A DNA stretch of 23,392 nucleotides from an uncultured bacterium (GTDB taxonomy: Bacteria > Cyanobacteriota > Cyanobacteriia > Cyanobacteriales > Aerosakkonemataceae). The translations under genes and the position numbers were made by a program. Under the pieces are notes generated by a model. The model saw only the letters and a program-made list of their open reading frames with translations. It made no database searches and was not told the DNA's origin. Shown here one piece after another: positions 4,299-22,872 of the stretch (position 1 is the first letter of the stretch; the number at the start of each line of letters is the position of its first letter). Location of the stretch: the NCBI GenBank assembly GCA_964546365.1, contig CAZJJR010000074.1, forward strand, positions 1 through 23,392. The letters run 5' to 3'.

Positions 4299-4690
4299 AC
4301 CTTTTATGTACTCAATAGTTATACTTAGAACAAGTCGTGTTCGAGGTATAACATGATATAAACTCGGTTTCTATGAAAAATAGTGGTTTGGAAAACTAGA
4401 GAATTACTAAGAAACTAGGTTCTAGCTACATCCTAGCCTAATTCCCAAACGCTCTTTGTACGTTTCTTTTCCATACTGTTGAGCAATTGTCATCAAAAGG
4501 AAACATGGAAACCGAGACGGAGGTATTCCTTCCTCCTAACGTGCTATCACAAAAGTACCTCTGATGCTGGATAATGGGGAGGTTTTCTTATATTGTCTGG
4601 TGAGGGTAGGTAGCTTCTCGTACCGACCATCCGAGACTAAGAATACATTTAAATTTTCCATTTTCCAGCAGGATTTCTGAATTAACCACT

Positions 4691-7675: not shown

Positions 7676-8521
7676 CTAGCTCCACATTGAAATAGGCATA
7701 TCTAATCCGCGAAACCCTATAAAGCAACTGTGAGTAACGCGCACTCCCAAAGATGGGCGCACTGCATGGATACAGGTAGAATCAAACAGAATTAAATCTC
7801 CTAATTGAGGCTGAATAGTGCAAGTCGGTAATGGAAGTTTTTGGCGTTCTAGTCCATAACATCCTGGAACGCGCAGTCGATCGTATTCTTCCTCCGAAAA
7901 GTGTTGCCACCAAAGATCTAGTTCCCCTCCAGATTCCGGGATATGAGTGTAGACGTTTACTGCAATCTGTCGGATTAGTTCCTTGGAACGTTCAAATTCT
8001 GGTGCATCAACTTGTAGCTTGTCGCGATGAGGTAGCGCCTCCGCTCCGTTGCGAAATACTCTGGCAGAACCTGCCCACATTGAATGTCCGCCAAGATGCT
8101 CAAACTGTACCCCAGCCAGCCAAACCTGATGCAACTCCATAAGCAAGAGACTGATGGGGGATAAGCGATACTTAAATCGCTCAATTTCCTGGTACATCCA
8201 ATCCATTGATTGTTGGAAATATTGCTGCCGTAGCTCAGGTTTTCCTACTGTGTCACAGAATGGGATACCCGTGCGTAAGATGTTTGGCTCAATGCCATAG
8301 CCACTCAAAGTTTCGTGGCTTAGAACTGATTGAGTAAACTCTTCTGCCAAACAAGAGGGATAGAAGTTCGGTACTCTCACCGCTAGAGTTTTTCCACAAA
8401 GTAAAGCTTCGAGATGCTGTCGTTGAAGTCTTTCTGTGACCGACAAAGAAGGTAGATGATTGTTGTTAACGTTCCAAGCATCGACAGTCAGTGGTTCCGG
8501 TAACATAGAGATTAACCTCAT
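7676..8521 (-). CDS. 2OG-Fe(II) oxygenase superfamily protein (putative hydroxylase).
   Basis: It is 281 aa. An HxD facial-triad motif (ALPHRDKLQ) and a distal His (DSTCIHAV) are followed by RVTHS, the R..S 2-oxoglutarate C5-carboxylate binding motif. The spacing is typical of the double-stranded beta-helix fold. The subfamily cannot be assigned by eye. Confidence 0.5.
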   Translation of the reverse strand: MRLISMLPEPLTVDAWNVNNNHLPSLSVTERLQRQHLEALLCGKTLAVRVPNFYPSCLAEEFTQSVLSHETLSGYGIEPNILRTGIPFCDTVGKPELRQQYFQQSMDWMYQEIERFKYRLSPISLLLMELHQVWLAGVQFEHLGGHSMWAGSARVFRNGAEALPHRDKLQVDAPEFERSKELIRQIAVNVYTHIPESGGELDLWWQHFSEEEYDRLRVPGCYGLERQKLPLPTCTIQPQLGDLILFDSTCIHAVRPSLGVRVTHSCFIGFRGLDMPISMWS

Positions 8522-11532: not shown

Positions 11533-14214
11533 ATGGATATGAATACAACCGATCGCAAATTGGAAAATCAAACTGAAATCTCCGGAAGTTCTAGTGGAGT
11601 AATTCGTCTCAAACCTCAACAATTCATTCACGTTTTAGATAACAATACTGGCGTTACTAGACTGGAAGTTGGCCCTCAAACGATTACTTTACGCGATCAC
11701 GAACGGTTAATATTGAAACCGGAACCGATGATTGTCGTACCGCCTCGATACTATTGCATCATTGAAAATCCCGTGCTTCGCGATGAAGATGGTAATCCGA
11801 TTGTTGACGAACACGGACAAATCAAACTTCGTTACGGCGATGCAGAAATTCGCTTTGCACAAGAACCTTTTCCCCTTTATCCCGGTGAAGAACTGGCAGG
11901 GGAAATCACGCAACTGCAAGTTGTGGAAAGAAATCAAGCACTACGTCTGAGAGCAATTCGCGATTTTGCCGATGCAATTACAGTTACGGTAGATGGAGAA
12001 AGCGAAACTCAAACTATCAACCGTTTAGCTGGAGATGAATGGTTATTTGAAGGGCCAGGAACTTATATTCCTCGCATTCAAGTGGAAGTTTTAGAGATAA
12101 TTCCTGCCAGAGTAATTAAACCAAATCAAGCTTTAAGATTAGTGGCAAGGCAGAATTGCATCGACCGTCAAGGTAATAGAAGAAGATCGGGTGAAGAATG
12201 GTTGGTGAGGGAAGAAGGTGCTTATTTACCAGGAGTTGATGAAGAGGTTGTTGGCATAATTAATGCTTACGTTTTAACTGAAAAGAAAGCATTGCATCTA
12301 AGAGCAAAACGCACTTTTAACGATGTTTTCGGTCGGCAACGTAAAGCAGGTGATGAATGGTTAGTTACCTTTGAAGATGCAGAAATCCACATTCCCGATG
12401 TTTATGAAGAGGTGGTGGGAGAAGTAAAAATTACCACTTTGGGCGACCGAGAATGGTGCATTGTTCTCAACCCAATTGATGAAGATGGTAAACCGCAATT
12501 GGGAATGCAAGAGGTGAGACAGGGGAGAATTTCGTTTTTTTTGCATCCAGGTGAATCGCTGGAAAACGGCATTCAAAAAGTTTATGTTTTGGGAGAACAG
12601 GAAGCACTTTTGCTGAAAGCTAAAGAAGCTTTTAGTGAGGGTGAAGGTGATAATTTAATCGAACGACAACCAGGGGATATGTGGATGATTGCAGGGCCAA
12701 GAGATTATATCCCGCCTGTAGAAGTAGAAGTAATCGAGAAACGTCAAGCAATTCCTCTTGATAAGAATGAAGGAATTTATATTAGGGATATTCAGACGGG
12801 CGAACTGAAGGTTGTCAGTGGGCCTCAAGCTTATATGCTCAGTCCTTATGAAGAACTTTGGGAAAAAGAACTGCCGCCAGTTGTGGAAGAACTTTTAGCG
12901 CTAAAAAATGACCCGGTTTCCGAACGGGGTCGGCATCATTTTACCAAAGGAGAGCGCCAAAATCAAACATTAGAAATTTCCGCAAATTATCAGGCAACAA
13001 GCGAACGAGATAAGACTAGAGCAGTAGTTTTTCACGTTCCGCAAAATGCCGCCGTGCAAATACATGATTATAAGGAAAGAACGGCGCGAACTGTATTTGG
13101 GCCAGACTTAGTAATGCTGGGGCCAGATGAAGCTTTTACGGTGTTGAGTTTATCCGGTAGCGTACCGAAAAGACCTCATGTAATCAAGTCTTTAGCTTTA
13201 TTATTAGGGCCAGATTTCATGACCGATTTGTTTACTGTCGAAACATCAGATCATGCCCGACTTCAGTTGCGTTTGTCTTATAATTGGTATTTTGATGTTA
13301 GTAGACATGACGAACAAGCGGCGGCAAAACTTTTTCAAGTACCTGATTTTGTAGATACTGCTTGTAAGGCGATCGCATCTCGCGTGCGGGGTGCGGTAGC
13401 CAGCGTAAAATTTGACGAATTTCACCGCAATTCGGCGCGGATTATTCGCACTGCTGTCTTCGGTACGGATGCTGAAGGTCGCGTGGGTGAAGAATTCCGT
13501 TTTAGAACCAATAATTTGGTGATTTTCAATGTTGATATTCAATCAGTAGAACCAGTAGATGAGGAAACTTTAAAAAGTTTGCAAAAGTCAGTACAAATTG
13601 CCATTCAAATTACTACCGATGCTCAAGAAGCTGCTGCCAGACATGATGCTGAACGAATCGAACAAGAAGCAAAATCACGATTAGAAAGGCAGGCAATCGT
13701 CGATAAAGGTGCGGCAGAAGGAGAACGGAGAAATTTGCTGGAGTTGCAAGCAGAAAACTCTGCGATCGAAACTACGGGTAAAGCCACCGCAGAAGCCAGA
13801 GCAAAAGCAGAAGCCGCCAGAATTGAAGGGCAATTAGCTGTTAATTTAGCTCAACAAGAAGCTGAAGCGGCGAGAATTCGTTACGAAGCTGAATTGGCTC
13901 AATTAAGATCTAAACAGGAAGCTGAATTAGCTCATCAACAAGCACTAATTGCTTTGGAAATTGAAAAAGCACAGCGCATGGCGGAAATTACCAGTACAGA
14001 ATTCAGGCAAAAAGTGGAAGCGATCGGCCCAGAAACCTTGCAAGCAATGGCGCAAGCTGGCCCGGAAATGCAGGCGAGACTTTTGCAATCTCTTGGTCTA
14101 CAAAGCGTATTAATTACTGATGGTAGAAGTCCGATCAATCTATTTAGTACTGCTCAGGGTTTGATAAGTCCAATTGCTGCTGACAGTGCTCAGTTACCAA
14201 AAGGCGATCGCTAA
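11533..14214 (+). CDS. mvp: Major vault protein (MVP) homolog, full length. It has MVP repeat domains, an SPFH-like shoulder, a cap-helix coiled coil and a cap-ring.
   Basis: It is 893 aa and collinear with human MVP from memory. [17 protein letters not shown] corresponds to [33 protein letters not shown] is identical. NQALRLRA and [12 protein letters not shown] correspond to [10 protein letters not shown] and [28 protein letters not shown] corresponds to [56 protein letters not shown] corresponds to [63 protein letters not shown] and PINLF are conserved. HIP1 GCGATCGC lies inside the gene at ~13369 and ~14203. There are no introns. Confidence 0.9.
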   Translation: [893 protein letters not shown]

Positions 14215-14338: not shown

Positions 14339-14668
14339 ATGAAAAAAGCAATGACTCATACCAAACCAAATCGCCCCCGTCGTCGAGGCAGGTTATTTCC
14401 TGAATACACGATTCCACCAGAAGAGTTAGCTAGACGCCAAGCTGAGAAAGAAGCGCGTTCTCAACGTTATCGCGAAGTTTTTGGACAAATTAGCCCTGAA
14501 TTAATAGAAAACCATTACAATTGGTTTATTGCGATCGAGCCAAAAAGCGGTGATTATTTTATCGATCCTGATGAGGAAGTAGCTGTTCAAAAAGCACGGC
14601 AAAAGTACCCTCATGGTATGATTGGCATCATGCGTTTAAATGAGACAGGAGCCTGTGGAATGATATGA
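14339..14668 (+). CDS. Hypothetical 109-aa protein with a strongly basic N-terminus. It is translationally coupled to the downstream aspartic protease.
   Basis: Track ORF: MKKAMTHTKPNRPRRRGRLFPEYTIPPEELARRQAEKEARSQRYREVF... The stop TGA overlaps the next start (ATGA at 14665-14668). Confidence 0.5.
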   Translation: MKKAMTHTKPNRPRRRGRLFPEYTIPPEELARRQAEKEARSQRYREVFGQISPELIENHYNWFIAIEPKSGDYFIDPDEEVAVQKARQKYPHGMIGIMRLNETGACGMI

Positions 14669-15033
14669 TTTCAGGCAGCTTCGGTGAAATTGGAGAGTTA
14701 TTTTTTGAAATAGATTTAATTGCTGCCGATGGAGAAAGATTCGCGATCGAAGTGCTACTAGATACGGGGTTTACAACAGGTTGGTTAGCACTTGACACTC
14801 AAGATGCTCAAAGTTTAGGGTGGTCTAAAATTGAAAGTGAACGAGAGATGCAAACAGCAAGAAGTAAAGAGTTTTTTGATATTTATGAAGGAAGAGTTGT
14901 CATTGATGAACAGGAGTATATTATTCCGGTTTTAGCTGGTGCGGGAATTCCGGAATCTTTATTAGGTTTGCAATGGTTGAAAATGATGCCGCTCATGGTA
15001 AATTATGCAGCAGGCGTGTTGACTTTGGGGTGA
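14665..15033 (+). CDS. Retropepsin-like (clan AA) aspartic protease, single domain, 122 aa.
   Basis: Catalytic triad LLDTGFT (D-T-G). The length and hydrophobic pattern are typical of homodimeric retroviral-type pepsins, including a C-terminal IIPVLAGAGIPESLLGLQWL flap/dimer region. Confidence 0.6.
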   Translation: MISGSFGEIGELFFEIDLIAADGERFAIEVLLDTGFTTGWLALDTQDAQSLGWSKIESEREMQTARSKEFFDIYEGRVVIDEQEYIIPVLAGAGIPESLLGLQWLKMMPLMVNYAAGVLTLG

Positions 15034-17452: not shown

Positions 17453-19051
17453 TTGCAATATAAAAAAGCTATTAACATGAGTTATCTCAAGTTGGCGATG
17501 AATTTGGCAAAGATTACTGCATTTGGTAAACCAATTGGTTTGCTGGTGCTTATTTTAGGTTGTCAGTTGTGGGTAAAGCAACTGAGTGCAACAGCGCAAA
17601 CGTCGAAAGTTCCGATGCAAGAAGTTTTAGCGCCAACGCAAGGTGTTAAACAGGTAGACTCTTCCCAGAGTATTTGTCCTGCACAATTATCCGCAGCAAT
17701 TGATGCGATCGCTAATCGTCCCCAATTTAATCGCGCTCGTTGGGGTATTTTAATTCAATCATTGGCAACCGAACAAACTCTCTACAACCGGGATGCACAG
17801 CAATACTTTATACCAGCATCCAACACCAAGTTATTAACTACCGCCGCCGCTTTACGTCAGTTAGGTTCTCAATATCGCATTCGCACATCTGTTTATGGTA
17901 GCAATGGCGTTTTGCGAGTGGTGGGAAGAGGCGATCCCAGTTTAACTGATGCACAATTAAAAGATTTAGCGCAACAATTAAAGCAACAAGGAATCACCCA
18001 AGTAAAACAACTGATCGTACAAGATGATTATTTTCAATCGCCGATACTTCATCCTACTTGGGAATGGGAAGATGTGAATGCTGATTACGGCGCTCCCATC
18101 AATAGTTTAATTTTAAATCAAAATGTTTTATCCTTAACTTTATTACCACAAAGATTAGGTCAACCTTTACAATTTCGCTGGAACGATCCCTTTGCTGCAC
18201 TGCAATGGCAAGTGGAAAATAAGGCTGTTACCGCTCAACCAAAATCAGAAAATACTCTAGAAGTAGTAGGTTTTCTAGGCAAGCCAATTTTGCAAATTCG
18301 CGGTCAGTTAAGCGCTGATTCCGAACCGGAAAAAATTGATTTACCAGTACGCGATCCGGCAGAAAACTTTTTACAACATTTTCGTCAATCTTTGCAATTA
18401 GAAGGAATTACCGTTACTCAAGCAATAGTGGCATCTAGCAATCAAAAAACCGATGAACCAGAATTAGCATCAATTGAATCTCCCCCCTTATCCCAGTTAA
18501 TCGCTGATACCAATCAACCCAGTAATAATGTTTATGCCGAATCTTTATTACAAACGATCGGTGCAATCAAATTCGTTTGTAGTAAGGAGTTTAGTCCTAA
18601 CTGCGATGAAGGAAAACTAACAACTACAGAAAAAGGATTAGCAGTTTTAAAAGCAACTTTAACTGATGTGGGAGTCGATCCGCAAAGTTATGTAATTAAA
18701 GATGGTTCGGGATTATCTCGACATAATTTAATAAGTCCGATCGCATTAGTTCAATTATTAAAAGGAATGTCCCAATTGCCGGAAGCAGAAATTTATCGAA
18801 CTTCCTTACCTGTAGCTGGAGTTAGCGGTACTTTGAGAAATCGATTTAAGGAGACACCAGCACAGACGATCGTGCAAGCAAAAACTGGTACGATGACAGG
18901 AGTTTCTTCTCTATCTGGATATGTAGATGCACCTAATTATGAAAGATTGGTGTTTAGTATTATTGTGAATCAATCCGATCGATCTGCAAGGATTGTTAGG
19001 GAAGGAATAGATGAGATTGTGCTGTTATTAACTCGTTTGCGTCGTTGTTAA
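17453..19051 (+). CDS. dacB: D-alanyl-D-alanine carboxypeptidase/endopeptidase (PBP4, peptidase S13).
   Basis: It is 532 aa with a signal/TM at the N-terminus. The SxxK active-site motif (IPASNTKLLTTAAAL), a DGSGLSRHN region and the KTG motif (AKTGTMTGVSSLSGY) are in PBP4 order. The start may be the downstream ATG at 17477 (MSYLKLAMNL...). Confidence 0.85.
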   Translation: MQYKKAINMSYLKLAMNLAKITAFGKPIGLLVLILGCQLWVKQLSATAQTSKVPMQEVLAPTQGVKQVDSSQSICPAQLSAAIDAIANRPQFNRARWGILIQSLATEQTLYNRDAQQYFIPASNTKLLTTAAALRQLGSQYRIRTSVYGSNGVLRVVGRGDPSLTDAQLKDLAQQLKQQGITQVKQLIVQDDYFQSPILHPTWEWEDVNADYGAPINSLILNQNVLSLTLLPQRLGQPLQFRWNDPFAALQWQVENKAVTAQPKSENTLEVVGFLGKPILQIRGQLSADSEPEKIDLPVRDPAENFLQHFRQSLQLEGITVTQAIVASSNQKTDEPELASIESPPLSQLIADTNQPSNNVYAESLLQTIGAIKFVCSKEFSPNCDEGKLTTTEKGLAVLKATLTDVGVDPQSYVIKDGSGLSRHNLISPIALVQLLKGMSQLPEAEIYRTSLPVAGVSGTLRNRFKETPAQTIVQAKTGTMTGVSSLSGYVDAPNYERLVFSIIVNQSDRSARIVREGIDEIVLLLTRLRRC

Positions 19052-19068
19052 ATTAAGTGAAGGGTAGA

Positions 19069-19102
19069 GAAACCCGGTTTCTTGAAGAAACCGGGTTTCT
19101 AG
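19069..19102. repeat. Copy 1 of a 34-bp perfect palindromic element, AGAAACCCGGTTTCT-TGA-AGAAACCGGGTTTCTA. It acts as a hairpin immediately after dacB.
   Basis: A 15-bp perfect stem with a 3-nt loop. An identical 34-mer recurs at 21695-21728. Confidence 0.65.
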
Positions 19103-19194
19103 TAGGTGAAGGAGATCGTCTTTACCATAGGTTTTGGCAGTTCGGCGTTTTATATATATAATCATAAGAAAAACTAGATCGCTTAATTACTAAT

Positions 19195-20274
19195 ATGTTT
19201 TCTCACATAATGTTAGTTATTGATGACAATAAAGATACTATATGGTTATATCAGCAACTAATGACCTTACTACCAGCTAAACATTTAAAAATGTCTTTGT
19301 CACGTAATGGAAAAGAAGGATTAGCTTTTCTTAAATCTCAAAAACCTAGCATAATATTGTTGCGTTATCCTGTTGGCTACTATTGGGATATTATTCGATA
19401 TATTCAGTCTCAAGCTCGGTTAAGATGGGTTCCGTTGATAATTTTGTCAGGAAAACCAAATATTAACGATGAGCATTCCATGATTTATGGGCGTTTTGAA
19501 CATTACCAGTTACCAGGTAATGCACTAGAACTTAAAAAGACTATTAAACGTGCGATCGCTCAAACAAAACAGCGATATTTGCAAGATAGCAAACATTCAA
19601 TATTTGCTCAATATTCTCAGACTGATATAAAACCTAAATATTTAAAATTGCAGGAATTGCTAACTAATAAAAATTGGCTTGAAGCAGACTTAGAGACAAC
19701 TAGACTAACGTTTCAGGTTGATAAAGAAAAGCTAGTAATTGATTCCGGTACTCCAGCCAGAAAAGCAGTTGCAGAAGCAATTGATGCTTTTTTACTTGAG
19801 GACTTACAAATGATAGATTACCTTTGGGTGATTTATAGCAATGGTCATTTTGGATTTAGCGTTCAGTGGCAGATACTTCAAAAAATCAAAAGTGAACTTT
19901 TTACCGTGCTTAAGAAAATAGGATGGTTTGATGATGAAAGCTTCCAAAATATCGATGTTGATGAAAGTTATGTAGAAGGATTTATGATTGATGGTAATTC
20001 ATCCTTCACAACAGATATTCAGACTAAAGATTTTTTTGACCAATATCCGATTCAAGGTAAATGGACTCCGATGACTGTCTTACCAATTGCTCTAGGGTGG
20101 TTAAGTAAAGGTGCGCCTGAATGGAATTTTGATTGTGAAACTAAGTACTCTCTCGATACTCCCAAGGGTCATTTACCTACAGTTGGCAAACAAGAAATGG
20201 GGGGAGCGTTTCATCACGGCTATCTGCTTTCTTGGATTTTCTCCAAACTTTATCCACGCCAATCAGAATGGTAG
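19195..20274 (+). CDS. Pseudo-receiver (CheY-like, lacking the phospho-acceptor Asp) fused to a GUN4-like domain.
   Basis: It is 359 aa. The N-terminus reads IMLVIDDN...SIILLRYPV...PLIILSGKPN. The DD pair, the beta4 Ser and the K-P are present, but the D57 position is Arg. The central and C-terminal region reads KYLKLQELLTNKNWLEADLETTRLTF...IDYLWVIYSNGHFGFSVQWQILQKI, matching the GUN4 W..YS.G.FGFS.Q..I signature. Confidence 0.55.
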   Translation: MFSHIMLVIDDNKDTIWLYQQLMTLLPAKHLKMSLSRNGKEGLAFLKSQKPSIILLRYPVGYYWDIIRYIQSQARLRWVPLIILSGKPNINDEHSMIYGRFEHYQLPGNALELKKTIKRAIAQTKQRYLQDSKHSIFAQYSQTDIKPKYLKLQELLTNKNWLEADLETTRLTFQVDKEKLVIDSGTPARKAVAEAIDAFLLEDLQMIDYLWVIYSNGHFGFSVQWQILQKIKSELFTVLKKIGWFDDESFQNIDVDESYVEGFMIDGNSSFTTDIQTKDFFDQYPIQGKWTPMTVLPIALGWLSKGAPEWNFDCETKYSLDTPKGHLPTVGKQEMGGAFHHGYLLSWIFSKLYPRQSEW

Positions 20275-20279
20275 ACTAT

Positions 20280-20651
20280 TTAGTAGCTGCCTCTCAAACT
20301 AGCGCCATCAATTCTAATGTAAGGTCTGAGTTCTACTTGTACCTTTGTTTTAACTTCTTGATTTTTGGCTGCTACTTCAAAAGCAAACTTACCTTTTTCT
20401 GAATCGATAATTTCAATATCTTCAACCATTTCAAACGTGAAATTGGCAATAGAAACATCTGAAAGTTTTAGATTAATTTGAACTGATTCTTGAATCATAT
20501 CCATGCCAAAGCGTAGTTTGATACCTGAAGCGTCAGTTACTTCATAACACCAATATCCATCAGTGGGATTAGCAATTACTAGTTCGGCATAAAATAATTC
20601 TAGCATTGCTAGTTCATCAAACTTTTGGCGGAGTTTCATTTTTTTATCCAA
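20280..20651 (-). CDS. Hypothetical 123-aa protein, last gene of a three-gene minus-strand cluster.
   Basis: Track ORF. It lies 8 bp downstream of the 79-aa ORF. No recognisable motifs. Confidence 0.4.
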   Translation of the reverse strand: MDKKMKLRQKFDELAMLELFYAELVIANPTDGYWCYEVTDASGIKLRFGMDMIQESVQINLKLSDVSIANFTFEMVEDIEIIDSEKGKFAFEVAAKNQEVKTKVQVELRPYIRIDGASLRGSY

Positions 20652-20659
20652 ACCTTAAT

Positions 20660-20899
20660 TCACGATGCCCAACAAGTTTTTTCGGGAAAATTTCCCTGTT
20701 TCCAATGCTGGCGAATTTTGACTGCCGCTCTCGGAAATAAAGCCTCTGAGTTATTAGTGGGAACTGGTTCAATCTCTTTAACTACACCATTAGTTTTATC
20801 TAACCACAGTTTGCCAAATAGCTTTTCGTGGGGGCCAAAACAGTAGACGACGCTGGTATCGTCTTCTTTTTCTTTCCAAAGCAACACATAAAAAGCCAT
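20660..20899 (-). CDS. Hypothetical 79-aa protein.
   Basis: Track ORF: MAFYVLLWKEKEDDTSVVYCFGPHEKLFGKLWLDKTNGVVKEIEPV... It is tightly spaced with its neighbours. Confidence 0.4.
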   Translation of the reverse strand: MAFYVLLWKEKEDDTSVVYCFGPHEKLFGKLWLDKTNGVVKEIEPVPTNNSEALFPRAAVKIRQHWKQGNFPEKTCWAS

Positions 20900-20961
20900 G
20901 CCTATTTTCCTCTTTTCTGATAGCGGATTTCTGACAGACTGCTACTAGCCTATCAGTTCCA

Positions 20962-21336
20962 CTATGCCAGAGGTGGTGACGGTGGGTTCCAGATGCGACC
21001 TGAACGTATTGTCGCTTCATGTGCAGTACGGTAGTCGGTACGAAAGATGCCCTCAAACCGCGATTCAAAGTATTCATGCTCTAATAGAGCTAGATCCTCA
21101 CCGATGTACTCGCCTCGGCGCAATCGTTCCCAAGCATCAGCAATATCTGGGTCAGGGTCAAAGCGACTAACTCTATCATCAAGCTGGTGTTCGCGGTAGA
21201 ACAGATGGTTTTTGATCCGTCTGATGCGGTATTCTCGTAAACCACTATTGCGGGCAATTTCTGCTACATCATCAGCTTGGCGGATAGCTTCGTAGGCTTG
21301 AGGGGCGTATTCTTCCCAACGGGTAAAATCGTCCAT
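20962..21336 (-). CDS. Hypothetical 124-aa protein, first gene of the small-gene cluster.
   Basis: Track ORF: MDDFTRWEEYAPQAYEAIRQADDVAEIARNSGLREYRIRRIKNHLFYREHQLDD... No family recognised. Confidence 0.4.
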   Translation of the reverse strand: MDDFTRWEEYAPQAYEAIRQADDVAEIARNSGLREYRIRRIKNHLFYREHQLDDRVSRFDPDPDIADAWERLRRGEYIGEDLALLEHEYFESRFEGIFRTDYRTAHEATIRSGRIWNPPSPPLA

Positions 21337-21694
21337 ATTGGAGATTTCCTTTAATAACGTTCTTATAGCTTCATATTTATGAAAGGCTAACTTTAAGCTA
21401 TCTGCTCGTTTTTACCAATATGAGAAATGTGCGAAATGTTTTATCTGTGAGATTTGCATGAATTTTCCAAGGCAATCATATTCATGGCTTAGGTAAGAGA
21501 GTCACGCTTAAATCAACCCCACGCAGAGGAAGGGAAGAGAGGAGAACGATCGCATTTTGGCTATTTTGATAGTTGGCGACGTATTGCTTAGTCGCAGAAA
21601 CATTGAATAATTCTTATTGATTAGTTTAAATGTTGCACAACGTTGAAGCCGCTCTAATCGAAAATACAGAACTTTCCAGGTAAATGAGGTATAC

Positions 21695-21728
21695 AGAAAC
21701 CCGGTTTCTTGAAGAAACCGGGTTTCTA
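21695..21728. repeat. Copy 2 of the 34-bp palindromic element, identical to 19069-19102.
   Basis: The sequence AGAAACCCGGTTTCTTGAAGAAACCGGGTTTCTA was read at both loci. The flanks differ. Confidence 0.65.
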
Positions 21729-21761
21729 TCTCTGCTGTAACATCATTCTAAATTCTGACCC

Positions 21762-21794
21762 CTAAAAAAAATAATAGGGTGAGCATCGCTCACC
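21762..21794 (-). terminator. Rho-independent terminator of the PRC-barrel gene: GGGTGAGC-GAT-GCTCACCC followed by TATTATTTTTTTTAG on the minus strand.
   Basis: An 8-bp perfect stem at 21776-21783 and 21787-21794. A T8 run follows immediately 3' on the minus strand, 17 bp past the stop at 21811. Confidence 0.7.
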
Positions 21795-21810
21795 CCACAA
21801 ACCAAACAAC

Positions 21811-22872
21811 CTAATACCGATCTTCTTCTTCGTATTCTGGCGTTTTCGTTTTTTCCGGTATGTTCAACTTAGGAGCTTTGTAGGGTTTAGGCGATTCTTC
21901 ATCAGCCCAAACATCTTCTACCTCGTCGTCTTCTTCTTCGTACTCATCCTCGTATTTTCTGTTGTCGTAACGAGGGGGAGGTTCCGGGGTCGCATAAGCT
22001 TTTTTGGCGTAATTGTTGCGGGTGGGTGTTGCTTCGCTCCAATTATCTTCTTCTTCTAACTCGTCTTCTTCGTAATAAAGTGTTTCAGGTTCGGGGCGAG
22101 GTAAGGGTTGTGCTTTGCGTAAAGGTTGGGGACGGGCTGGGGGTGCTGCTTCTTCCCATTCGTCGTCAGACTCCTGCCACGATTCTTGCACAACTGGTCT
22201 GGCTCGGCGAATCGGTTCGGCTTTTTGGAGGGGAACGCCTGTTGGTAGTTGATTTTCTGGTCTGATGGTGGTGGGTCGATAGTATTCTTCTTCTTCGTCT
22301 CTTTCCCAAGGCGCTCTACCGATGCCGAGACGTTCTAGGACACCTACGGTTAATTGTACCAGTCGCTCTTCCGATCCCTCGAACACGATCAGACGATTTG
22401 GGCCACTGCTGACAATTTCGTCAATGGGAAGCTCGTAAGTACTAATTGTCTCAAAACCTGCAATGCGATCGGGTATTTGAGGAACTCCAATCGAAGCGAT
22501 AATTAGGGAGGTTACTTTACCAGTTTCCGTATCGAATTTGAAACCCCGCACTCGACCTAGCATTTCGCCTGTTTCGGTGATCACCTCGCAGTTGATCAGG
22601 ATGCTGTAAATTTCTACATCGACATCATCTTCCAGGACGCTTTCATCATCCACTAGGATAACGTCACCGATTTGACGAATGCGGCTGAGTAGCATATACC
22701 TGGGAATGTTGCCGATCGAGATCAGGCTTTCTCGCAAACCGAGTGCTACGATCTCTCGCCGATCGATATCTACCCACAGTTGACTAACCACCCCAAGGCG
22801 TTTACCTGTGTCGCGGGTGATTACCTGGGTACCCAAGATGTCTGAGCGTAGGCGGATCTGTTCAGATGTCAT
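21811..22872 (-). CDS. PRC-barrel domain protein (two PRC barrels) with a long acidic, Pro-rich C-terminal tail.
   Basis: It is 353 aa. The N-terminal ~170 aa show two PRC-barrel-like segments: ILGTQVITRDTGKRLGVVSQLWVDIDRREIVALGL and LINCEVITETGEMLGRVRGFKFDTETGKVTSLIIAS. The tail is rich in E/D/P/Y, e.g. EEEDNWSEATP..., YEDEYEEEDDEVEDVW. Confidence 0.6.
   Translation of the reverse strand: MTSEQIRLRSDILGTQVITRDTGKRLGVVSQLWVDIDRREIVALGLRESLISIGNIPRYMLLSRIRQIGDVILVDDESVLEDDVDVEIYSILINCEVITETGEMLGRVRGFKFDTETGKVTSLIIASIGVPQIPDRIAGFETISTYELPIDEIVSSGPNRLIVFEGSEERLVQLTVGVLERLGIGRAPWERDEEEEYYRPTTIRPENQLPTGVPLQKAEPIRRARPVVQESWQESDDEWEEAAPPARPQPLRKAQPLPRPEPETLYYEEDELEEEDNWSEATPTRNNYAKKAYATPEPPPRYDNRKYEDEYEEEDDEVEDVWADEESPKPYKAPKLNIPEKTKTPEYEEEDRY

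Follow-up and report, generated by a model that had tools for sequence, protein, structure and literature searches.

Two palindromes in the window (the whole 23,392-nt stretch of DNA analysed here) are copies of a widespread dispersed hairpin repeat of the REP/MITE type, a familiar kind of element. An exact-match search of the whole window finds the 34-mer AGAAACCCGGTTTCTTGAAGAAACCGGGTTTCTA on the plus strand exactly twice, at 19068-19101 and 21695-21728, and dinucleotide-preserving shuffles yielded 0 matches to it. The first-pass annotation had already recognised a palindromic 34-mer present twice, although its position for copy 1 (19069-19102) was one base too high. The perfect 15-bp hairpin that it described for each copy is recovered by folding, with a 15-bp stem, a 3-nt loop, a free energy of -23.6 kcal/mol and z = -7.7. 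Each 15-nt arm, AGAAACC-N-GGTTTCT, is moreover palindromic in itself, a point absent from that annotation. A candidate third copy at 4358-4372 was rejected as a degenerate half-site devoid of a complementary second arm. The two copies are delimited as follows:

19068-19100, no strand: copy 1, 33-nt core (exact match and fold), with arms at 19068-19082 and 19086-19100 and the loop TGA at 19083-19085; the 34-mer of the first-pass annotation adds A19101
21695-21727, no strand: copy 2, 33-nt core (exact match and fold), the same as copy 1, loop included, with arms at 21695-21709 and 21713-21727 and the loop TGA at 21710-21712

Scanning one genome per species for the pattern AGAAACC-N-GGTTTCT, 3-nt loop, AGAAACC-N'-GGTTTCT retrieved at least 137 copies; the loci that hold them, at least 116 in number, come from dozens of genomes belonging to three phyla. 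This genome scan demanded perfect 13-mers, so that the conservation of the stem is partly imposed by the search; a mismatch-tolerant rescan, limited to the loci already fetched, gave 153 copies, against 0 in a reversed-sequence control. The hosts are Oscillatoriales, Nostocales, Chloroflexota (loci of 58-69% GC) and Planctomycetota (loci of 59-68% GC), and the variants of the centre base and of the spacer differ by lineage, so that these are not mis-binned cyanobacterial contigs. Individual genomes contain many copies: a single contig of Oscillatoria sp. PCC 10802 carries the 33-mer in at least nine separate 8-kb blocks, O. princeps has many such blocks among the matches listed, and the fetched loci contain, by our estimate, an additional copy every 24-40 kb. 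Tandem arrays occur in loci L105, L047 and L102, where the spacers are identical tandem units, and an identical compensated variant was seen repeatedly inside one MAG and between genomes. The scan of phage contigs gave 0 matches, and the plasmid search a single partial match at chance level. Searches of the literature by core sequence and by host termini found nothing relevant, and the 33-nt hairpin repeat is apparently undescribed so far, its separation from the SDR repeats discussed below being based on the described insertion of SDR5 and not on sequence.

Variation among the copies indicates which structure is maintained. The two centre bases covary (CG in 94 copies, AT in 16, GC in 16, TA in 2, and mismatched in 9), and exact inter-arm compensation was found in 8 of the 15 two-mismatch variants. 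Along the long helix, double-sided changes affect 7 of the 15 pairs (44 cells), a level reached in 0 of 500 shuffles, whereas pairing within the arms shows 0 double-sided changes; variants disrupt the within-arm palindrome and yet retain inter-arm pairing. On the best reading, it is as a long 15-bp hairpin, formed by single-stranded DNA or by RNA, that the element is conserved and copied. Arm-to-arm gene conversion could also generate such a compensatory pattern, without selection on a folded molecule.

The copies sit mostly behind genes. Based on crude ORF heuristics, only 17% of them lie inside ORFs (83% outside), compared with 78% of random positions, and their convergent/tandem/divergent contexts (42/49/9, against an expected 22.6/54.1/23.3; chi-square p=2.4e-6) reveal enrichment between convergent genes and depletion between divergent ones, although 9-11% of copies are still found in divergent contexts. 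The trend persists under stricter ORF calling. In tandem contexts the copy is nearer to the upstream stop than to the downstream start in 29 of 49 cases, which is not significant, and the orientation of the loop relative to the upstream gene shows no bias and therefore no strand-specific signal. The idea that copies would be consistently intergenic at 3' ends holds as a tendency: most of them lie between genes, with a bias toward 3' ends. Clustering and a Pfam screen revealed no enriched family among the genes beside the copies, which are unrelated and share only generic paralogues (WD40/STAND, ABC transporters, TPR, DUF433, PIN, and Uma2).

Transcription of dacB and of the PRC-barrel gene runs toward the two window copies. 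The genes and signals of the region are:

17453-19051, plus strand: dacB-type D-Ala-D-Ala carboxypeptidase gene (Pfam Peptidase_S13, 8.5e-116)
19105-19136, plus strand: terminator-like hairpin and T-run (GGTGAAGGAGATCGTCTTTACC followed by ATAGGTTTTG; terminator scan and fold), directly 3' of copy 1
19134-19162, plus strand: promoter-like site of the GUN4-domain gene, TTGGCA-17-TATAAT (11/12 matches), downstream of copy 1
19195-20274, plus strand: GUN4-domain gene, between both copies (Pfam GUN4, 1.8e-25)
20280-21336, minus strand: ORFs converging on the GUN4 gene, between the copies
21764-21798, minus strand: intrinsic terminator of the PRC-barrel gene (GTGGGGTGAGCGATGCTCACCCTAT followed by TATTATTTTTTTT; 11 pairs, 6 of them G-C, and a long T-run)
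21811-22872, minus strand: PRC-barrel domain gene (Pfam PRC, 4.5e-19)

Copy 1 starts 17 nt past the last base of the dacB stop codon, and the hairpin that follows it is a candidate for the true terminator of dacB. Copy 2 lies beyond the canonical terminator of the PRC-barrel gene, as the first-pass annotation had placed it, about 36 nt past the T-run (terminator at 21798-21774 on the minus strand), and this terminator adjoins the host element that carries the copy. Homologues of the GUN4-domain gene also have a receiver domain. An Rfam search of the whole window returned nothing at the gathering threshold and, at a permissive threshold around both copies, chance-level matches only (E>0.1); neither tRNA nor tmRNA genes were found in the window.

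A homologue search identified one close relative, L117, with 90% identity, the other matches being about 53% identical. The L117 contig (2.2 kb) starts inside the element, where the assembly breaks. At its orthologous site, the adjoining intergenic DNA has diverged, but the element differs by a single C>T change. L117 retains 32 of the 33 core bases; 29 core bases and the flanking A lie within the contig and are aligned. Copy 1 is already present in L117, whose downstream genes differ, and the -10 region of the GUN4 promoter-like site is conserved there as well. Two contigs drawn from the more distant matches (P0003 and P0004) showed no synteny, and no empty orthologous site was found among the relatives compared (L117, P0003, and P0004).

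A substantial part of the family is nested in larger palindromes. Out of 260 flanking arms, 95 cluster into host families, whereas about 63% are without a recognisable host element. The host elements are palindromes of about 90-104 nt with TA|TAGC…GCTA|TA ends and tight sizes when complete. In family A, some members have the 33-mer at the apex and others a GTAG-type REP hairpin, an exchange that mirrors the nested REP dimers contained in A. variabilis palindromes (PMC3733652). The 33-mer is thus an interchangeable apex module of host palindromes that elsewhere occurs alone. Traces of such hosts surround the window copies:

21667-21764 (approximate boundaries): palindrome of about 98 nt whose apex is copy 2, probably a diverged MITE-like host
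19036-19132: possible, weakly supported host-palindrome remnant around copy 1, whose left arm would cover the last dacB codons and the stop

For copy 2, a count by eye gives 22 of 30 positions in agreement between the left arm CAGAACTTTCCAGGTAAATGAGGTATAC and family-E arms (ATAGCAATTTTCAGGTATGTGAGGTACAGA, in L070, L045, and L060); the right arm ends in AAATTCTGACCCCTA, and the alignment shows that the likeness extends to both arms. This host was tied to no family by BLAST clustering at E<1e-3, which marks it as a diverged member. The left flank of copy 1, ATTAAGTGAAGGGTAGA, resembles family A (ATTAGTGAGGTACTGA, in L111 and L115), with poor likeness on the right arm and weak flank-to-flank pairing. 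The two flanks had been described as dissimilar, which is not entirely so: the 14 nt to the left of each copy have 9 of 14 positions in common, a likeness that we ascribe to a single host-repeat superfamily, of which both flanks would be diverged arms. The cores are identical in the alignment and the arms around them have diverged. No autonomous elements of 300-3000 nt bounded by the host-MITE termini occur in the sample, nor any full-length partner insertion sequence. The many copies, their intergenic and 3'-biased placement, and their frequent location inside MITE-like palindromes bear out the first-pass proposal of a dispersed REP/MITE-like repeat in place of independent terminators.

Among known systems, the repeat resembles REPs in being short (20-40 nt), palindromic and extragenic, in having many copies in a genome, and in its 3'-end bias. 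As in REPINs, whose hairpins are preserved by compensatory changes (PMC3116915), an inverted doublet of a smaller palindrome forms a longer hairpin with compensatory changes. The likeness extends to GTAG REPs, reported from Cyanobacteria, Chloroflexi, and the PVC superphylum (PMC3733652), with which it shares the same unusual set of phyla and the same apex slot in host palindromes. It differs from REPs and REPINs in that the 33-mer stem is perfect (REP stems are imperfect), the units measure only 15 nt, and no RAYT was found among the ORFs screened beside copies. Within 9 nt of the core, the REP tags GTAG and CGTC were present in only 7 and 2 of 218 outer flanks, respectively, and no position of the flanks is conserved, apart from C being slightly favoured at -3 to -1. 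Resemblance to MITEs (Nezha in Anabaena/Nostoc, Correia/NEMIS, and ERIC) lies in the non-coding, palindromic, and intergenic character, in the ability to form stable hairpins in transcripts, and in the third or so of flanking arms that are parts of ~90-104-nt elements, which have terminal inverted repeats and a TA on either side. However, MITEs conserve their termini and vary in their interior, whereas here a conserved apex is common to several host families with different termini. The 33-mer itself does not qualify as a MITE (70-300 bp, with terminal inverted repeats, target-site duplication, and a relationship to insertion-sequence ends), since it has no separate termini and no border duplication. 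The SDR repeats of Nostoc punctiforme and relatives are, like the 33-mer, very small (<100 nt) modules inserted precisely inside other sequences. Elhai and colleagues reportedly described, in 2008, SDR families of 21-27 nt. According to PMC4390886, SDR5 splits HIP1 after its third base on insertion (GCG|ATCGC); the flanks of the 33-mer are not GCG...ATCGC, that is, not HIP1 halves, and we rejected an SDR5-type module. An integron attC site was likewise rejected, as AGAAAC and GTTTCT do not fit RYYYAAC and GTTRRRY and the perfect stem has no extrahelical bases, and so was a CRISPR repeat, given that the window copies are 2.6 kb apart and array spacers elsewhere are identical, not unique.

We consider that the 33-mer most likely is a small non-autonomous dispersed palindromic repeat, of the class of REP/REPIN-like 'untagged stem-loop sequences' and MITE cores. 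As such, it would be copied in trans by a sequence-specific enzyme, and its copies would persist mostly behind genes, where, when transcribed, they probably place a very stable, strand-symmetric hairpin on the 3' end of the transcript. Such a hairpin could block exonucleases or weakly attenuate read-through from either side. Since no empty site, target-site duplication at the 33-mer borders, or mobilising enzyme was found, it is from distribution alone that we infer mobility. We found no copy accompanied by the cognate RAYT/IS200-like transposase for which the first-pass annotation had suggested a search: among 151 ORFs of 110-340 aa situated within 1.5 kb of copies, a crude HUH/Y motif screen gave no RAYT candidate, and a Pfam scan of 150 of these ORFs showed no transposase among the 25 families shown (which include all families with at least two members). 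As a genome should hold just one RAYT, this near-copy sample says little about its presence or absence. Somewhat unlikely, in our opinion, is that the 33-mer constitutes an autonomous ultra-small mobile 'module' with a dedicated enzyme common to filamentous cyanobacteria, Chloroflexota, and Planctomycetota. The module, with no terminal repeats and no target duplication, would be copied into the DNA between genes as well as into other palindromes, at their apices, and the dedicated enzyme would account for AT-rich arms that are identical in genomes of ~64% GC. If true, this would represent a new pairing of hairpin repeat and enzyme, parallel to REP-RAYT.

Explanations that do not involve mobility of the 33-mer fit the data less well. 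It could be a bidirectional intrinsic terminator or insulator selected in place, spread incidentally via MITE carriage, with AGAAA as A-tract, CCSGG...CCSGG as G+C core, and TTTCT as U-tract. This symmetric layout of A-rich, G+C, and T-rich segments is indeed that of bidirectional terminators; the stable hairpin, the perfect strand symmetry with random orientation relative to genes, and the bias to 3' ends and convergent genes also speak for it, and the window copies do meet incoming transcription from dacB and the PRC-barrel gene. Nevertheless, the A-rich and T-rich stretches pair in the stem, so that the only U-rich stretch, UUUCU, is itself paired; most copies lack a T-run after the stem, mixed sequence following the core family-wide; and a terminator scan of 18500-22300 picked up hairpins next to the window copies but not the copies themselves. 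The absence of a U-tract, together with the separate terminator-like hairpins with T-runs that adjoin both copies, makes a canonical bidirectional terminator unlikely. In addition, a role depending on structure only leaves unexplained both the conservation of sequence across phyla, which terminators do not show, and the identical arms in GC-rich genomes, and the copies between divergent genes do not fit it either; we judge this explanation improbable. A recognition site for an RNase or for a host protein that binds RNA or DNA, kept by that interaction and not by mobility, would accommodate the conservation of sequence as well as structure in three phyla, the inter-arm covariation, and the core conserved amid diverging flanks. 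RNase III processing could be envisaged, particularly when MITE arms extend the stem, although classical substrates of RNase III have longer stems than these 15 bp. The neighbouring genes, however, have no common function, no candidate protein was found, and tandem arrays and MITE nesting are typical of selfish repeats, so we hold such a site to be quite improbable too.

Two further possibilities concern the window more directly, and both seem very improbable. Each arm being a perfect 7-N-7 palindrome, the copies might be paired duplex operators, of two palindromic 15-mers each, through which a dimeric factor would co-regulate the GUN4 gene and the minus-strand ORFs at 20280-21336; they do lie upstream of two inward-facing units, copy 1 about 35 nt before the strong -35/-10 match. 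The covariation decides against this proposal, as it joins the arms to each other and never the halves of one arm, and so do the preference for 3' ends, the avoidance of divergent promoter regions, and the presence of copies beside unrelated genes in three phyla. Equally doubtful is a local segmental duplication, a chance convergence, or a pair of copies marking the ends of a 2.6-kb mobile cassette, an idea suggested by the different gene content of this segment in L117. The first-pass annotation had reasoned that two copies only, in this genome, would point to a local duplication; the large, dispersed family uncovered by the copy count refutes that origin for the repeat. At the density estimated above, chance would already place some copies within a few kb of each other, pairs in other loci enclose unrelated content, and copy 1 precedes different downstream genes in L117.

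The non-autonomous dispersed hairpin repeat that we favour has several implications. For annotation, the 33-mer provides a recognisable marker, not to be called an operator or a canonical terminator. Small palindromic repeats affect transcript 3' ends, genome rearrangement, and assembly quality, the latter illustrated by the L117 contig. The family is unusual in that one 33-nt sequence occurs in three distant phyla and acts as a swappable apex in several MITE families beside GTAG-type REPs. It offers a test case for questions raised in the REP literature, namely how untagged stem-loop repeats spread and whether dedicated enzymes exist for them.

The 34-mer AGAAACCCGGTTTCTTGAAGAAACCGGGTTTCTA occurs exactly twice in the window, at 19068-19101 (copy 1) and 21695-21728 (copy 2), and has no match in 100 dinucleotide-preserving shuffles. 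The identity of the two sites had been recognized in the first-pass annotation, although copy 1 was placed one base too high (19069-19102). Both copies fold into the perfect 15-bp hairpin proposed there, closed by 3 nt of loop, at -23.6 kcal/mol (z = -7.7). The 15-nt arm, AGAAACC-N-GGTTTCT, is also a palindrome in itself, on which that annotation was silent, so that the element can be read either as a single long hairpin or as a tandem pair of duplex palindromes. The gene context described for the two copies, past the dacB stop and beyond the PRC-barrel terminator, respectively, is correct:

17453-19051, plus strand: Peptidase_S13 (dacB-type) gene with a Peptidase_S13 domain; copy 1 begins 17 nt beyond its stop codon
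19105-19136: hairpin with a T-run, separate from the element and directly 3' of copy 1
19134-19162: strong promoter-like site, downstream of copy 1 and ahead of the GUN4-domain gene
19195-20274, plus strand: GUN4-domain gene, downstream of copy 1
21798-21774, minus strand: canonical terminator of the PRC-barrel gene; copy 2 lies ~36 nt past its T-run
21811-22872, minus strand: PRC-barrel gene with a PRC-barrel domain

The hairpin at 19105-19136 is a more conventional terminator candidate than copy 1.

Scanning one genome per species for GAAACCNGGTTTC-N{1,12}-GAAACCNGGTTTC, a pattern that imposes perfect 13-mers, yielded at least 137 copies in at least 116 loci of cyanobacteria, Chloroflexota, and Planctomycetota, so that the element is one member of a dispersed hairpin-repeat family, as had been suspected. 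The repeat unit is A-GAAACC-N-GGTTTC-T followed by a variable 3-nt loop and the complement; among the matches listed, 115 of 137 copies have 5 nt between the 13-mers, and the hosts include Oscillatoriales (Oscillatoria, Microcoleus, Phormidium, Microseira, Limnofasciculus, Aerosakkonema, Okeania, and others), Nostocales (Scytonema, Calothrix, Stigonema, Iningainema, and Heteroscytonema), Chloroflexota (Anaerolineae, Caldilinea, and Promineifilum), and Planctomycetota (Gemmataceae, Fimbriiglobus, and Planctomycetaceae). The window itself is cyanobacterial, as indicated by its 41.5% G+C, its GUN4 gene, and 13 HIP1 octamers (GCGATCGC) against an expectation of 0.36 for its 23.4 kb; repeat families D5 and D8 of our within-window repeat listing are merely HIP1-centred matches. 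The non-cyanobacterial loci have 58-69% G+C, are HIP1-poor, and show variants peculiar to their lineage (A/T or G/C centres in Chloroflexota, 7-nt spacers in Planctomycetota), which rules out mis-binned cyanobacterial contigs as their source. The element was found neither in 2.9 million viral contigs nor in PLSDB plasmids, matches no Rfam family, and its sequence did not appear in the searchable literature. Extra copies in fetched blocks occur roughly once per 24-40 kb, so pairs a few kb apart, including that of the window, are expected by chance. Tandem arrays of the 13-15-nt palindromic unit, in which the spacers are identical, also occur in loci fetched from other genomes (L-numbers; L105:5959-6051, L028:6086-6165, L047:6171-6620, L102:2409-2808, and L090:1825-1899), including arrays of period 20 in Gemmataceae (GAAACCGGGTTTC+TGCTTTG), with G-rich spacers in Oscillatoria princeps, and of 81-nt units in an Anaerolineae MAG.

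The feature maintained in this family is the complementarity between arms, namely a hairpin in single-stranded DNA or RNA. The central bases of the arms covary in the 137 copies among the matches listed (CG 94, AT 16, GC 16, TA 2, just 9 mismatched). Since the first scan imposed perfect 13-mers, we rescanned the fetched loci allowing up to six mismatches, which produced 153 matches versus none in reversed sequence; 8 of 15 two-mismatch variants showed exact inter-arm compensations, versus ~1% expected by chance. When 79 distinct variants were aligned, double-sided changes occurred at 7 of the 15 pairs of the long helix (44 cells), a level reached in none of 500 shuffles, whereas pairing within the arm had no such change and was indistinguishable from shuffles. 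A pair of duplex dimer-binding sites or a duplex operator, for which the palindromic arm could be read, is therefore rejected, and the long stem has been preserved through compensatory change. Certain compensated variants recur, GGTaTCT/AGAtACC twice in one MAG (Scytonema PMC 1070.18) and GGTTTtT/AaAAACC across genomes, which indicates that variant masters have been copied.

The 33-nt core (33-mer) is often nested at the apex of larger MITE-like palindromes, 95 of 260 flanking arms clustering into such host families. Complete host elements have tight sizes (mostly 92-97 nt in family A, 99-104 nt in C, and 90-93 nt in B/B2), and most are bounded by TA|TAG...CTA|TA. Ten complete family A elements carry the 33-mer at their apex and others (in L036, L068, L043, and L108) GTAG-type REP hairpins (GTAGGGGC...GCCCCTAC), so that several apex modules, the 33-mer among them, are interchangeable, which points to modular exchange of these hairpins. 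The GTAG-apex elements (L036:746-836, L036:5896-5984, L068:7344-7434, L043:1502-1646, and L108:759-871) measure ~90-145 nt and end in TA|TAGCGGTTTTCA...TGAAAACCGCTA|TA; at L108:759 a degenerate half of the 33-mer is combined with a GTAG hairpin. Such nesting parallels that of REP dimers in Anabaena variabilis palindromes, whose consensus (TATAGGAnTnnnATTTGATTnnTGAAA--TTTCA...TCCTATA; Di Nocera et al. 2013, PMC3733652) family C closely resembles; GTAG REPs were reported there in Cyanobacteria, Chloroflexi, and the PVC superphylum. Flank-to-flank pairing lay beyond the control's 5th percentile in only ~20% of copies, most being thus solitary hairpins, and our sample contained no full-length autonomous partner of the host elements. 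The two window cores agree in every base of stem and loop, and their arms are heavily diverged. Copy 2 probably forms the centre of a diverged ~98-nt host element (roughly 21667-21764) that abuts the PRC-barrel terminator; 22 of 30 positions of the left arm agree with family E arms, and the right arm is recognisably similar too; the alignment of copy 1 with host-element arms is weak. If its left-flank similarity is real, the last dacB codons and stop codon (19036-19051) might, speculatively, have been supplied by the repeat's arm.

Copies are placed behind genes and avoid promoter regions. By crude ORF calling, 17% lie inside ORFs versus 78% of random positions, and the 100 placeable intergenic copies comprise 42 convergent, 49 tandem, and 9 divergent contexts, versus 22.6, 54.1, and 23.3 expected from intergenic lengths (chi-square p = 2.4e-6); stricter calling gave the same trend (38/33/11). 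The location at 3' ends suggested for verification is thus seen as a bias. Copies in tandem contexts lie a median of 65 nt past the preceding stop codon and 157 nt ahead of the next start codon, the 3'-side preference not being significant (29 of 49 copies). The element is strand-symmetric, the orientation of its asymmetric loop being unbiased with respect to the upstream gene (e.g., TAA 13 versus TTA 10). In most copies the stem runs into no T-run, and it has no conserved tag next to it (GTAG in 7 of 218 flanks). Neighbouring genes are unrelated, recurring clusters being only generic paralogues (WD40/STAND, ABC transporters, and TPR). The cognate RAYT/IS200-like transposase that might accompany such repeats was not detected near the copies: no Pfam family accounted for more than three of the 150 small adjacent ORFs, the 25 families listed included no transposase, and an HUH/Y motif screen yielded no candidate.

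In the closest relative (contig L117), whose GUN4 protein is 90% identical, the orthologous site contains the element with one C>T change, and the adjacent intergenic DNA has diverged, with an extra ~70-nt insertion. This contig begins inside the element, as expected of a multi-copy repeat. No empty orthologous site was found among homologues, the others being only ~53% identical and the two with fetched contigs not syntenic. At L117:1376-1440 (compared with window 19190-19260), a truncated duplicate of the 5' end of the GUN4-domain gene comes after that gene, and then a HicA/HicB toxin-antitoxin pair, where the window has different minus-strand ORFs; the region between the copies is thus variable among relatives. 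The window's ORFs there (20280-20651, minus, 123 aa; 20796-21336, minus, 93 aa overlapping 124 aa) had no match in the Pfam search. GUN4 is the sole domain passing Pfam in the window protein; since the annotation of homologues at ~53% identity gives them a response-regulator receiver domain at the N terminus, it may have a degenerate receiver fused to GUN4. Elsewhere, an 893-aa ORF (11533-14214, plus) encodes a homologue of Major Vault Protein (four Vault repeats, 2e-68; MVP_shoulder, 2e-52; Vault_2, _3, and _4), of a type known from few bacteria, and is followed by two small ORFs (14339-15033) without Pfam match. A 2OG-Fe(II) oxygenase (7676-8521, minus) weakly matches (2.2e-6) the WelO5 carrier-protein-independent halogenase family.

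The element is probably non-autonomous and copied through a sequence-specific enzyme acting in trans, which would explain identical AT-rich arms in genomes of ~64% G+C. When transcribed, it would place a very stable 3' hairpin on the upstream mRNA. On the model of E. coli REPs and Correia/ERIC elements, this hairpin would most plausibly block exonucleases or weakly attenuate read-through in both directions; having no free U-tract, the element is unlikely to be a canonical terminator. Although it works like REP/REPIN sequences, it lacks the tag by which GTAG/CGTC REPs are defined, and our sample yielded no RAYT, so we do not file it among them. The 33-mer alone is not a MITE, though often the core of one. 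SDR5 inserts inside HIP1 (PMC4390886), a feature in which our element differs. We place it among the untagged palindromic stem-loop repeats, apparently as a new one, distinguished, among SDR families, from SDR5 alone. A mobile, ultra-small element of the module type, served by a dedicated enzyme of its own much as REPs are by RAYTs, seems to us a rather unlikely reading. The family is of moderate interest as a sequence conserved across three phyla and an interchangeable apex module.
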